Position numbers and translations under genes: made by a program
Virus record (IMG/VR): IMGVR_UViG_3300050343_000135
Coordinates: 10,215 to 74,214 of that record
DNA from: a virus
Length of the DNA stretch: 64,000 nt
Reading direction: 5' to 3' (one strand)
Part shown: positions 43,010 to 49,431 of the stretch, one piece after another
How positions within the stretch are numbered: the stretch's first letter is position 1
How the letters are laid out: every line of letters starts with the position of its first letter
The notes under the pieces: generated by a model
The model's database searches: none
Told to the model about the DNA's origin: nothing
The model's input: the letters and a program-made list of their open reading frames with translations, nothing else

Positions 43010-43154
43010 GACTTATGCGAAGGTTTGCACCGATTTTGCGAGAAAGATTGTGCCAGTTTCGCGTCCGGCCCCCGAGAGTTCGCTAGCGTTAATTTATGAG
43101 GAATTTCTTTCGCAAATCTATTGACAATCTTATCAGGCTTCTATATAATATATG

Positions 43155-43360
43155 TATCTTTTGAGGGAAATGAGAAAAACCGAACACAGAGGCTAACTAT
43201 TAACAGTTAGAGAGAGTATAGGTGAGTCGCTTCAGGGGGGTGTCCAAGCATGCTAGGGGATATTAGAAATGCAAAAACGAACAAGAGCTTGGCCCGATTC
43301 ATTTCCACCAAAAGACCTATACTAAGGTATGGTTGCGAAAGGAGAACACGCAAAACATAA
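43155..43360 (+). ncRNA. Candidate structured ncRNA 1 (~200 nt)
   Basis: Promoter TTGACA-17-TATAAT (43121-43149), no credible ORF, ends pair (TCTTTTG/CAAAAGA, GGAAATGA/TCATTTCC), and a 9-bp long-range pairing 43215-23 with 43315-23. Confidence 0.55.
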
Positions 43361-43436
43361 AAAACTCCTTGACAAAACCTTATCCGCAGTATATAATAGT
43401 ATTATAAAAACAAACAAAAAGAATAAGGAGAACATT

Positions 43437-43763
43437 ATGGCATCAGCTAAAAATTACACAGAAGAAATGGTAGCTTCAATGACAGAAGCATACAAAGCCA
43501 ATCCTACAAGAGAAACAGTAGATGGCTTAGCAAGAGAATTTGGCAAGACTACAAGAAGTATCATTGCTAAACTTTCAAGAGAAGGCGTATATGTTGCTCA
43601 ACCAAGAACAACTAAATCTGGTGAAGCAATAGTAGCTAAATCTGAGTTGGTTTCTGAAGTTGCTACTATTCTAGGTGTGCAGGTTGAGGACATAGCATCT
43701 CTAGAAAAAGCAACAAAAGTCCACCTCAAAGAACTGGTGACAAGACTATCCCAAGTAGTCTAG
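43437..43763 (+). CDS. T5 A2-like DNA-binding protein
   Basis: NYTEEMV...LAREFGKTTRSIIAKLSREGVY...KSELV...IASLEKA; promoter 43369-43397; true start 43437 by RBS. Confidence 0.7.
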   Translation: MASAKNYTEEMVASMTEAYKANPTRETVDGLAREFGKTTRSIIAKLSREGVYVAQPRTTKSGEAIVAKSELVSEVATILGVQVEDIASLEKATKVHLKELVTRLSQVV

Positions 43764-43832
43764 TTGCGAACTCTGAGAACCTCGTGAAAAATAACACTTG
43801 ACACGAGGTTACCGCCAGAGTATAATATATTT

Positions 43833-44105
43833 ATAAAATTAAGAAACAGTAGAGAAGTGATAAAAGTAGGCTGACCCCCTCATTGTCACTTGGTTAAAGT
43901 GAACCTACTCTAGCTACTAAACATACCCTATCAAGTAGCAGATAGTATTTAACGGGAAAGTGGTGGGATTAAATACTGTTTTTTAGCTAGATAACTCTAG
44001 CGTGGTAAGTGTCTACGGAAGCACGCACAAAAGTGAAGTAGCAAGTTCGACTCTTGCACCACCTAGTAAAAGTTAGTACCAATCTAACATCTAGCTAAAA
44101 ACCAG
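43833..44105 (+). ncRNA. Candidate ncRNA 2 containing an anticodon-less tRNA-like domain
   Basis: Promoter 43798-43826; consecutive hairpins; D-arm, canonical T-arm GCAAG-TTCGACT-CTTGC and acceptor-like stem at 43997-44066, inside a 12-bp closing helix. Confidence 0.65.
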
Positions 44106-44167
44106 TTAAGTAGTAAATAAGTTAAAAATTTACTTGACACAAGGTTAAAAACGTAGTATAATATATA

Positions 44168-45163
44168 TTACAAAAAGGGGAAAAGTAGTTGGAAACAGGA
44201 AAAAATAAATGATTGAGCTTCGGCCAATAAATAATCCTCCAACAACTTGACCGAGTGAGGCGTCACATAAAACACTGCCGGATGCTCTTTAGACATAGAT
44301 GAGATTCACGTTAAATGTAAAAATGTCCGCTTTTGATAGTCGTTATGAGACATACCTTCCGCAGCAAGGAGAGAGTCATAACCGCATGAACTGATGCGTA
44401 AATATTTGAGTGGATACTTCCAATAAGTCCCCTGAGTACATAGTACGATTGCGAAGGACTCCAAAGTAGGGTGAGTAGCGACTAACACAACGGCAATAAG
44501 CAAAGCAGCAACGAAGCAAGAACAGTTCGGCACTTTATCGAAAGTATAAAATCGATTTGTTTTACTGCATTAATGGGCGTTACGACCTTCGGGTTTACTA
44601 AATGCAGAGGTAATTGTAAGCACAGGATATAGCCAAAATATCGGTGTAGAGTGAGGAAACCACGCTGTTCCTATCCCACGCCTCAACCGTTTCGGTAGCA
44701 GGAGTGTAGGGCAAGGACGAGAAGAAAACCAGTCTACTGCGACACGGGCGGACTAGATATTTATATCATAGCAACCAGTCAATAGTAGCAAACTCGGGCA
44801 AGGGAAAGGATGATGTTTCCTAGCCGCAGACTGCGAGAGCGAGGTGTCTTCGGGACGGGGGCAGTAGGCAACTAATTAAGAAGTGCAGACTTGGAACACT
44901 ATAAAAGCTAAGCAGCAAGAAGAACGGCAGTCGCTCTGTCAACTACTGAATAGTAGATATCTTAGTCAATAGCATTTGGACTTAAAACAGTGCATAGTAG
45001 ATAAGTGATGTGAAATAAGCAGTGCACCTTCGATTGAAGTTTGTAATATCCATCACCTCTAGCTACGCAGTGGACAGGTTCGTGAGTAATTCCAACACGA
45101 CCACTTTAAAATAAACTTACGTTCGGAGTTTAAATAGGCAGTTGAGATACTGCCTATTTTTTT
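44168..45163 (+). ncRNA. Candidate giant structured ncRNA (~1 kb)
   Basis: Consensus promoter 44134-44162, strong terminator 45132-45163, no plus-strand ORF of 60 aa or more, many nested helices and cUUCGg/GNRA loops. Confidence 0.75.
45132..45163 (+). terminator. Intrinsic terminator
   Basis: AAATAGGCAGT/ACTGCCTATTT stem plus T-run. Confidence 0.85.
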
Positions 45164-45265
45164 GTTTCGTAGAACTATATCTCAAAATTTTAAGGTCTTA
45201 AAAAATAGTTCTTGACAGACAACTTATTTCTCTGTATAATATATGTATATAAAAAGGAGACAAAG

Positions 45266-47500: not shown

Positions 47501-47745
47501 TGACACAGTATATAAACGAAGTAGAAAAACAAAGACTGTATCTAGCTGCTGAAGACTGGGGAAACAAAGTATCGCAGATATACTCAACAAAAGGTGGAGC
47601 AGGAGATTTAGGCTTTGGTATGGGAATGTTTGTTTACTATAACAATGGAGCAGTACATAAGCTAGAAGGAAAGAAGATAAGTATATGTCAAGTTCCGAAC
47701 AGTATAGAACAAGTCATAGACGACTATGAAAGGAAGGATGTATGA
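47500..47745 (+). CDS. Hypothetical protein
   Basis: 81 aa, coupled to its neighbours. Confidence 0.6.
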   Translation: MTQYINEVEKQRLYLAAEDWGNKVSQIYSTKGGAGDLGFGMGMFVYYNNGAVHKLEGKKISICQVPNSIEQVIDDYERKDV

Positions 47746-48044
47746 ACTACAGTAAGGAAATAACAGCGGATATAGTAAAAAGATATAGGGACGCTCCAAA
47801 CCGCCAAACAGTTGCGATTCTCGCAAAAGAACTTGGCAAGAGTGAGAAGTCCGTTATAGGAAAACTAAGCAAGGAAGGAGTATATAAACGAAGTGTTTAT
47901 GTAACGAAAGCTGGAGAAAAGCCAGTAACAAAAGCACAACTAGTGCAAGAATTAGAGGAGAAGTTAGATGCGAACTTGGAAGGGCTAGAGAAAGCTCCGA
48001 AAGAGACTCTACGCTCCTTAGTGGAGGCAATATGCGAAGAATAG
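47742..48044 (+). CDS. Second A2-like paralogue
   Basis: NYSKEIT...LAKELGKSEKSVIGKLSKEGVY...TKAGEKPVTKAQLV...GLEKA aligns along its length with 43437-43763. Confidence 0.75.
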   Translation: MNYSKEITADIVKRYRDAPNRQTVAILAKELGKSEKSVIGKLSKEGVYKRSVYVTKAGEKPVTKAQLVQELEEKLDANLEGLEKAPKETLRSLVEAICEE

Positions 48045-48303
48045 TAATGACACCAAAAGGTCTAGGAATGTGTGATAGACAGGAGTTTCGAATGCATGGG
48101 GATTTAATGTACCTAAAGGTTACGCTAAAGACTGGGAAAGTGTAGAATATTTGAACACTGAAGTAAGATTTCTAGATATGGAAGTAGAAGTTGAGGAAAT
48201 AAAAAGACGTAAAAGATTAGATGCAATTACGGGAAAGATTAATGAAAAATTTTGAATTGGGCGAAGTCTTTAGATAATTAAGACGCAGTTTTAGACAGAC
48301 ATC

Positions 48304-48334
48304 AAAGACCGATTAGCTTTTAGTCGGTCTTTTT
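48304..48334. terminator. Bidirectional terminator between convergent units
   Basis: AAAGACCGA..TCGGTCTTTTT hairpin. Confidence 0.8.
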
Positions 48335-48492
48335 CGTTGTTTGAATTAGATTGTATTTTCTCTCTCGACCTTTCACTCAGTTCATCTCAGGTCTCTTCTT
48401 CGCTTACGCTCGAAGAGCCTTGTTTTAAGATAATCGGAGTAGGTCTCGATTAGGAGAGAGAAGAATGAATTGAGTAATTATTCTAATTTATA
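48304..48492 (-). ncRNA. Candidate ~190-nt rod-shaped small RNA downstream of rpsU
   Basis: Own promoter TTGCAA-17-TAAAAT (48499-48527); long bulged hairpin capped by a GUAA tetraloop; G-U pairs work only on the minus strand. Confidence 0.6.
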
Positions 48493-48572
48493 GTATATAT
48501 TTTATCACACTTTTATCAAGATTGCAAGTTTTATTTTTGGTAGGGTCATTATAGCTACTTTCTGGGAACGTC

Positions 48573-48800
48573 TTATCTCCGAGAAAATTTATTTCTCTTA
48601 CGATAGTCAGATGAGATTTGATTGAGAGATTTAAGATGTCTCTTCCTCTGCTCGTTTTTCTTACGTTTGCGTTTCACTGTTGGTTTCTCATAGAATTCGA
48701 GTTCGCGACAGCGTTCTTTGATTTGAGCGGCCTCACATTTCTTACGAAAAATACGAATTGCCTTTTCTGTTGGCATGTTTTTACAGTATATACTAGGCAT
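48573..48800 (-). CDS. rpsU: Phage-encoded ribosomal protein bS21
   Basis: EKAIRIFRKKCE...RELEFYEKPTVKRKRKK. Confidence 0.88.
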   Translation of the reverse strand: MPSIYCKNMPTEKAIRIFRKKCEAAQIKERCRELEFYEKPTVKRKRKKNEQRKRHLKSLNQISSDYRKRNKFSRR

Positions 48801-48965
48801 GCGCTCTCCTGTTATTGAAAGTCCAGCCTCTCTTTCGTAAGTAATGTATCTGCGAATAGAGTTGACTCTCAGTAACCTGAAGTTTCTTGCAAATGTCTGT
48901 GCGTCGAATTACCTTGTAGTTTCCTTTAAATACTGCTTATCTTCTTGAGTCCATCTTTTGTTCAT
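48790..48965 (-). CDS. Small HTH/Myb-like protein, with indels
   Basis: MNKRWTQEDKQYLK...SQ..YLRKRGWTF; promoter 48972-49000. Confidence 0.5.
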
Positions 48966-49431
48966 ATCCATATTATACTAAAAATAGAACCTGTTGTCAA
49001 GTATTATTTTTGACCATGTTAAATATAGTACTTGACCTCGCGTTAGAAAAGTTGTATAATATATACATAAAAAAGGAAACACTATGAACAATAATGATTT
49101 AGCAGTACTGATATGGTTATTACTATCAAATGTGGGAACTTACTTTTTCTGTAAGTACCATTTTATACGACATACCATAGATGTTCTCGAAGATAAAGGG
49201 CTACTAATCCTCGAAGATGATGAAAAATAATTCTTGACATCAACTTCCAAATTTAGTATAATATATCAGTAGTTAGATTTATTCTAGCTATGGGATATGG
49301 GATGGTATAGTTCAATCAATAAAACAGGTTCTTTCTGCATCTTTGAACATTCAGTTTTAGAACTAGGGAATTAATGCTACCGAAAGGGGCAAACTTAACC
49401 AAGATGCAAGCTTACTGAAAAGGAGACAACA

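Follow-up and report, generated by a model that had tools for sequence, protein, structure and literature searches.

The bS21 gene of an uncultured ocean phage is followed, on the same strand, by what is very probably a real and independent RNA gene, and its product belongs to a new structured family that shows strong covariation and is not catalogued in Rfam. The stretch of DNA analyzed (the window, 64,000 nt) is part of a 74-kb IMG/VR viral contig that is ~75% complete. The proposition in its entirety, namely that of a stand-alone ~190-nt structured RNA gene that represents a new marine-phage family, functions as a binding platform and is linked to bS21, is put at about an even chance of being correct. 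A functional tie of the RNA to bS21 or to translation, which is suggested by the arrangement of the locus, is by itself a tentative proposal with somewhat less than an even chance.

On the minus strand, the locus is arranged as a promoter (49000-48972), a small helix-turn-helix gene, bS21, a second promoter located 45 bases past the bS21 stop, and the RNA (Table 1). The start codon of the helix-turn-helix gene (48793-48971, minus strand) lies immediately 3′ of the -10 box, and the gene is therefore probably leaderless; the stop codon and the start of bS21 overlap. In the window contig, the reading frame is interrupted near 48909, which may reflect an error of assembly or a genuine mutation, and six relatives have an intact gene (53-64 aa). 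Genes on the plus strand converge on the RNA from the opposite side, with the final open reading frame among them ending at 48255. One converging neighbor (47742-48044, plus strand, 100 aa) has a weak, sub-threshold match to the Pfam IF2 N-terminal domain (E = 0.0011) and is present as a second copy elsewhere in several related phages. Scans of viral sequences returned 521 stretches with relatives of bS21 and 445 with relatives of this IF2_N-like neighbor. Past the terminator, positions 48256-48300 (minus strand) contain a block, CTACAAnTGCGyC ... TTCGCCCAATTC, that is kept even in distant clades and that in the close clade encloses a small covarying hairpin (GUCUU/AAGAC, CGUC/GACG, UUAC/GUAA). 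The block probably represents the last part, with the 3′ tail, of the gene that converges on the plus strand.

Table 1. Features of the bS21-linked RNA locus, with positions in the window and paired strands written 5′ to 3′ on the minus strand.
Feature	Positions	Strand	Sequence or description	Basis or remark
Head of bS21 islet	48793-49000	-	Promoter TTGACA-17-TATAAT (49000-48972), then small helix-turn-helix gene	Perfect promoter
bS21 gene	48573-48800	-	75 aa; directly upstream of RNA, same strand	Pfam PF01165, E = 2.8e-13
RNA promoter, sigma-70-type	48499-48527	-	-35 TTGCAA (48527-48522), 17-nt spacer	Consensus scan
Predicted small RNA	48302-48493	-	~190 nt	Ends placed from promoter and terminator positions
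Possible 5′ local hairpin	48476-48488	-	AAUUA-GAA-UAAUU	89.3% of cells paired in 15 relatives; no compensatory change
Irregular hairpin (rod)	48358-48462	-	~105 nt	MFE and centroid fold, RNAalifold consensus, pair counts
Basal helix	48462-48454 with 48366-48358	-	TTCTCTCTC with GAGAGAGAA	
Helix	48445-48441 with 48371-48367	-	GACCT with AGGTC	
Helix		-	ACTC with GAGT	
Helix	48433-48426 with 48389-48382	-	TTATCTTA with TGAGATGA	Two G-U pairs included
Apex module	48393-48417	-	CUCUUC / GA / GC-GUAA-GC / GAA / GAAGAG	Invariant columns in close clade
Apical helix	48417-48412 with 48398-48393	-	CTCTTC with GAAGAG	
Cap	48409-48402	-	GC-GTAA-GC	
Proposed partner of AATTAGA (48488-48482)	48344-48350	-	TCTAATT	In A/U-rich single-stranded linker before terminator
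Terminator stem-loop	48304-48332		G+C-rich	Ends RNA; also bidirectional terminator for converging plus-strand genes

The sequence-only reading that preceded this analysis had proposed a dedicated promoter for the RNA on the minus strand, and such a promoter is indeed present. Its extended -10 element, TGaTAAAAT (48507-48499, with TG at 48507-48506 and the -10 hexamer TAAAAT at 48504-48499), is followed by ATAT, and this layout is that of the phage's other promoters (TTGACA-17-TATAAT-ATAT). The promoter is kept, spacer included (TTGATAAA..TG.TA.AAT), in all close relatives and also in distant relatives fetched via bS21 alone. The start of the RNA was placed 5-8 nt past the -10 box and its end at the terminator U run. 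A terminator stem is found where it had been anticipated, ~190 nt from the start, and is retained in relatives with one compensatory pair. The U tract is better on the plus strand, for which the scan reported the tail TTCGTTGTTT; the minus-strand stem continues into UUUGAUG, so that the tract is UUU only and weak. No conserved open reading frame is found in the RNA among relatives, and a small-peptide reading was rejected, as the open frames vary in both length and frame. The locus thus has the attributes of a stand-alone small RNA gene, with its own promoter, no conserved reading frame and a terminator, all three of which are conserved, and the discrete structured non-coding unit that had been predicted behind bS21 is upheld.

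The terminator scan reported no terminator-like site between the bS21 stop (48573) and the RNA hairpin, and read-through from the promoter at 49000 would therefore carry the hairpin as well. The earlier suggestion that the structure could be the 3′ element of the rpsU transcript holds to this extent, but the separate conserved promoter indicates that it is not the whole story. Contigs from RNA libraries (four seawater runs) cover the flanking genes at 47800-48135 and 48566-48880 and do not cover 48136-48565, a pattern that, coming from contigs, cannot show absence of the transcript. Two of the RNA-library contigs, from two studies, end at 48566/48567 just beyond the bS21 stop, an observation from which no conclusion is drawn. 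Small structured RNAs are often missing from such libraries.

The minus strand folds with a free energy of -53.9 kcal/mol (z = -4.98), which none of 200 shuffles equals, and the fold of the plus strand is weaker (z = -3.3). The nested minus-strand pairings and the cap listed in the sequence-only reading were all located in the window. The rod is preceded by about 45 nt of conserved 5′ sequence and begins with a CU-rich/GA-rich basal helix, an 8-nt 5′ loop and two short helices with a 3′ GAA(A) bulge, beyond which lie a 10-bp helix, a 6-nt 5′ bulge and the apical helix; the internal loops in the supported fold measure 8/0, 6/0 and 2/3 nt. The outermost of the pairings, the 7-bp AATTAGA with TCTAATT, has a different standing, as it can form in the window but is 79.6% paired among relatives with no compensatory changes, which is no better than shuffles, and it competes with the local 5′ hairpin AAUUA-GAA-UAAUU. 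A long-range helix between the 5′ and 3′ parts seems, by eye, to covary in distant clades (GACAAA/UUUGUC versus GGCA/UGCC).

Close relatives of the locus were collected through the bS21 protein (11 loci), and further ones by searching for the 18- and 21-mers of the invariant apex. All 11 relatives fetched via bS21 have the promoter, the hairpin and the terminator, and the structure is thus kept downstream of bS21; its absence there was one of the two refuting outcomes named in the sequence-only reading. For covariation, 15 distinct close-relative sequences were aligned and folded with RNAalifold, which gives back the same hairpin and terminator. Over the 43 pairs, 96.7% of cells in the 15 relatives are paired, compared with 35-54% when the partners are slid by 1-3 columns. 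Ten pairs are altered on both sides, as in the change from GACCU/AGGUC to GGUUU/AAACC, and the observed score is matched by none of 500 shuffles; the homologue covariation that had been named as a check is accordingly present, as ten compensatory pairs in 15 relatives. Three pairs remain G-U in 11-15 of the 15 relatives (alignment columns 68/117, 73/112 and 81/110). As the retained G-U pairs would be A-C on the opposite strand, they point to the minus strand as the functional one.

The family extends well beyond the close clade. With a covariance model built from the close-clade hairpin, weaker copies were recovered at a distance of 200-450 nt behind bS21 genes of only 55-64% identity, and these loci also retain the promoter with its spacer. 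A promoter-pattern scan that is independent of bS21 returned 46 distinct places, of which 40 have the RNA. At all 40 of these RNA-bearing loci, bS21 is located upstream on the same strand; the gap between bS21 and the RNA is 44-434 nt in 39 of them (all within 900 nt) and ~1.2 kb in L188. The surrounding gene order of lysozyme, Hsp20, bS21, RNA, converging IF2_N-like gene and MazG is maintained at 35-70% protein identity. The IF2_N-like gene served to fetch 80 loci, among which 51 have a bS21 match downstream and 48 of these were examined. Of the 48, 42 have a strict pattern of extended -10 and TTG -35 elements in the interval that separates the two genes, and the promoter can be counted in at least 46, because four of the six misses are family-A contigs with an RNA already identified. 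In L350, L346 and L188, where 650-1160 nt, including an inserted open reading frame, part the RNA from bS21, the promoter remains beside the RNA, and this argues for a transcription unit of its own. An extra open reading frame of ~170 codons is located between bS21 and the RNA promoter in some relatives, as in L350:2800-3989, the interval from the IF2_N-like gene to bS21.

In the distant clade, RNAalifold on a plain MAFFT alignment gave the apex only, and a fold mapped from one member was needed. With the fold mapped in this manner, the 25 distant members are 74% paired, versus 33-43% with slid partners, and 36 pairs are altered on both sides. The rod helix is 88.5% paired in this clade and a competing local side hairpin is 83% paired, with one strongly covarying pair. 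The side hairpin takes the forms GAGAU/AUCUC, GAAAU/AUUUC, GGAAU/AUUCC or a UUCG hairpin, at the place where the clade of the window has the 6-nt bulge. The CU-rich/GA-rich basal helix is not retained in every clade. A search of 50,697 records of cultured phages gave no DNA or protein match, and no paper was found in the literature on an RNA gene coupled to phage bS21. As all members come from one phage lineage and gene order is the only link, the association of bS21 with the RNA could be inherited rather than functional.

The tip of the rod consists of a purine-rich internal loop and, above it, a 2-bp GC clamp closed by a GUAA loop. One drawing of the apex has a 2x3 purine internal loop with six Watson-Crick pairs below the 2-bp clamp; in a register shifted by 2 nt, the apex can instead be written as a standard k-turn, with no effect on the covarying lower pairs. 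The k-turn register consists of a C stem of GC/GC, a GAA bulge, the pairs G.A, A.G, A.C and G.U, and three Watson-Crick pairs. The bulged strand of the apex has GCGAAGAA in common with Kt-7 (PMC4382518). The comparison has its limits, in that the 3b.3n position would be A.C, the register with the 2x3 loop competes, and the signature is absent in other clades; under the k-turn rule, a motif with A.C at 3b.3n does not fold with ions alone and would need protein (PMC4382518). The internal loop is GA/GAA in the close clade and GU/UAA, GUA/GAA, GGA/GGA or GAA/GAG in other clades, and the terminal loops across clades are GUAA, GCAA, AUAA, CUAA and GAA. As both the apical and the internal loops vary between clades, the k-turn signature is not general; the feature that is general is a purine-rich non-canonical loop located 2-3 bp beneath the terminal loop. 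Purine-rich non-canonical loops commonly bind proteins or form tertiary contacts. A k-turn at the apex may be regarded as a lead provided by the sequence of the close clade.

The exact apex 21-mer of the window (48415-48395, CTTCGAGCGTAAGCGAAGAAG) occurs in other phage RNAs too. It closes a hairpin located toward the 3′ end of another conserved structured region, at least 350 nt in size, in further phage contigs of marine and freshwater origin (L017, L019, L024, L025, L037, L043, L046, L055, L063 and L066). In this large region, for example L025:3540-4130 on the minus strand, a second, covarying hairpin directly follows that of the 21-mer. In L025, a contig with a T4 baseplate gene as well, a SegE-like GIY-YIG endonuclease gene lies immediately upstream of the region, and in L037 a Polynucleobacter-1 RNA (RF01718) is found ~270 nt upstream of it; no Rfam match covers the large region. 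The 21-mer also tops a longer hairpin in a rumen Clostridia MAG (L053:1650-1860) and in a matching metagenome contig (L060:150-360). In the latter, a ~101-nt unit with the 21-mer hairpin is present twice in tandem upstream of a membrane-protein gene, and the unit of these two sequences has no Rfam match at E ≤ 0.01. The interpretation of the 21-mer as a host motif was rejected, since a one-genome-per-species search gave only two matches, both in Clostridia MAGs. A further part of the window (43100-45260) contains a series of perfect TTGACA-17-TATAAT promoters driving ORF-free, helix-rich stretches, one of them ~1 kb in length, and the apical 21-mer of the bS21-linked RNA does not recur there.

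The likeliest reading of these sequences is that of a stand-alone RNA that binds a protein or the ribosome and works with the bS21 module. Transcription by the host sigma-70 RNA polymerase would begin at the strong phage-type promoter, and the transcript would fold into a short A/U-rich 5′ region, the ~105-nt rod and an A-rich linker before stopping at the bidirectional terminator, while read-through of the bS21 operon from 49000 would carry the identical structure as a 3′ tail. The RNA would act via its shape and serve as a platform to which a protein or the ribosome binds, not as an antisense RNA, because its helices are kept by compensatory change and the apex and several of the one-sided loops are fixed in sequence. 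The strict linkage to bS21 suggests a role in the phage take-over of translation initiation, where the RNA might bind or buffer bS21 of either the phage or its host, or might attach to the small subunit of the ribosome. Direct binding of bS21 by the RNA, the most specific form of this reading, is rather doubtful; it draws on gene order at this locus and on the published precedent of OLE RNA. Similar doubt attaches to a more elaborate scheme in which the phage bS21 and the adjacent RNA constitute a dedicated two-part module, with the RNA either binding and storing the phage bS21 or stripping the bS21 of the host. Host bS21 would then be removed from ribosomes and replaced by the phage copy, with the purine-rich apex, possibly a k-turn, serving as the protein platform. 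If true, this would be a ribosomal-protein-plus-small-RNA device for reprogramming translation initiation. Many phages carry bS21, and a conserved RNA gene fixed to bS21 would offer a concrete and testable partner; even without the link to bS21, the uncatalogued structured family is suited to inclusion in Rfam and to structure probing.

Several other functions could be assigned to the same transcript or DNA. A base-pairing regulatory RNA would use a single strand to pair with host or phage messengers, e.g., at ribosome-binding sites, for which the CU-rich tract (48462-48452) and the conserved UAAUCUAAUU linker (48352-48343) are two candidates. Nearly all clades have a pyrimidine-rich tract at the corresponding position, which the L193 and L191 types display in the loop of a hairpin, and small RNAs that depend on a chaperone typically have an A-rich linker ahead of their terminator. 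The tract of the window and its clade, however, is locked in a covarying helix with the GA-rich strand, and across clades the tract is without fixed sequence, never contains CCUCC and shows no co-variation with the bS21 ribosome-binding site. Together with a conservation of the RNA that is mostly structural, this makes regulation by pairing fairly improbable. The hairpin could alternatively function only in cis, as a 3′ element of the helix-turn-helix-bS21 messenger that provides a stabilizing hairpin, an RNase III site or a feedback site for bS21. Transcripts of the operon should reach the shared terminator, given that no terminator-like site intervenes after the bS21 stop, and long irregular hairpins at operon ends are common processing and stability signals in phages. 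A purely cis-acting role is nonetheless improbable in view of the separate promoter, which, with its spacer, belongs to the most strongly conserved non-coding sequence of the locus across clades and which the RNA keeps even where 650-1160 nt of other DNA part it from bS21, and in view of the ~45 nt of conserved 5′ sequence ahead of the hairpin.

The resemblance to 6S RNA that was at the center of the sequence-only reading, i.e., a decoy that binds RNA polymerase holoenzyme by mimicry of an open promoter, has not stood up. The phage RNA is like 6S RNA (RF00013 and related models) in being ~190 nt long and non-coding and in forming a mostly double-stranded rod whose ends could pair. It has no match to a 6S model at the gathering score or at E ≤ 10, its loops are one-sided (8/0, 6/0, 2/3) with no two-sided central bubble, and the stem proposed to close the rod is without covariation support. 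The 5′ and 3′ parts of the RNA in distant clades seem to be paired almost without interruption, or a side hairpin is found in place of a bubble. The phage RNA further differs from 6S RNA in having its own intrinsic terminator hairpin, in being phage-encoded and in being tied to a ribosomal protein gene. Lacking an Rfam match and a two-sided central bubble, the 6S reading is unsupported and can be considered highly improbable. An equally slight probability is given to an element acting at the level of DNA or transcription, such as an insulator between converging units or a hairpin for replication or packaging. Such an element would fit the position between converging genes, next to a bidirectional terminator, and the plus strand, too, folds better than expected by chance (z = -3.3), but the three conserved G-U pairs would be A-C on the other strand, the conserved promoter points into the hairpin, and a simple insulator would need neither sequence-fixed asymmetric loops nor an invariant apex. 

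Among catalogued RNAs, no family of Rfam 15 matches the whole window at the gathering score, and on 48250-48600 (351 nt) a search at E ≤ 10 gave chance terminator matches only, with none to the 6S, SRP or Y RNA models that had been put forward for comparison. The models of bacterial SRP (4.5S) RNA, including the domain IV loops, have no match at E ≤ 10, the apex of the phage RNA being GA/GAA under GUAA, and the Y RNA and YrlA models have none either. A precedent for binding by bS21 is OLE RNA, a non-ribosomal structured RNA of ~600 nt from Bacillota that is bound by bS21, which promotes a k-turn there, and that contains an exact anti-Shine-Dalgarno copy (CCUCCU) through which bS21 binds (PMC12054373). 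Like the P5-P6 region of OLE (PMC12054373), the phage RNA is non-coding, structured and connected with bS21, in this case through gene order, and has a pyrimidine-rich strand paired to a purine-rich strand as well as a motif that can be written as a k-turn. An extended SD has been described for rpsU (PMC9976891). Unlike in OLE, CCUCC is present in none of the 74 phage family members, and GGAGG is present in six of the 74; the window has just the CU-rich/GA-rich helix. The best matches of the 74 members to a copy or complement of the 12-mer at the 16S 3′ tail equal those of shuffled sequences, and with CCUCC missing this means that an anti-Shine-Dalgarno mimic of the OLE type is absent. No exposed complement of at least 10 nt to the 16S 3′ tail was found, the best in the window being 7/12.

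The arrangement of the gene finds parallels among sRNAs embedded at the 3′ ends of coding genes, such as MicL and DapZ, whose promoter lies at or after the end of the coding gene and whose terminator is shared with the upstream gene. Such sRNAs act by short seed pairing with Hfq. The phage RNA is similar in that it can arise independently or from read-through and has a shared terminator, but it differs from the MicL/DapZ type in that its main feature is a long covarying rod whose apex is fixed. In its origin from an uncultured ocean phage, its conserved fold and its own promoter and terminator, it resembles the orphan structured RNAs of marine phages.
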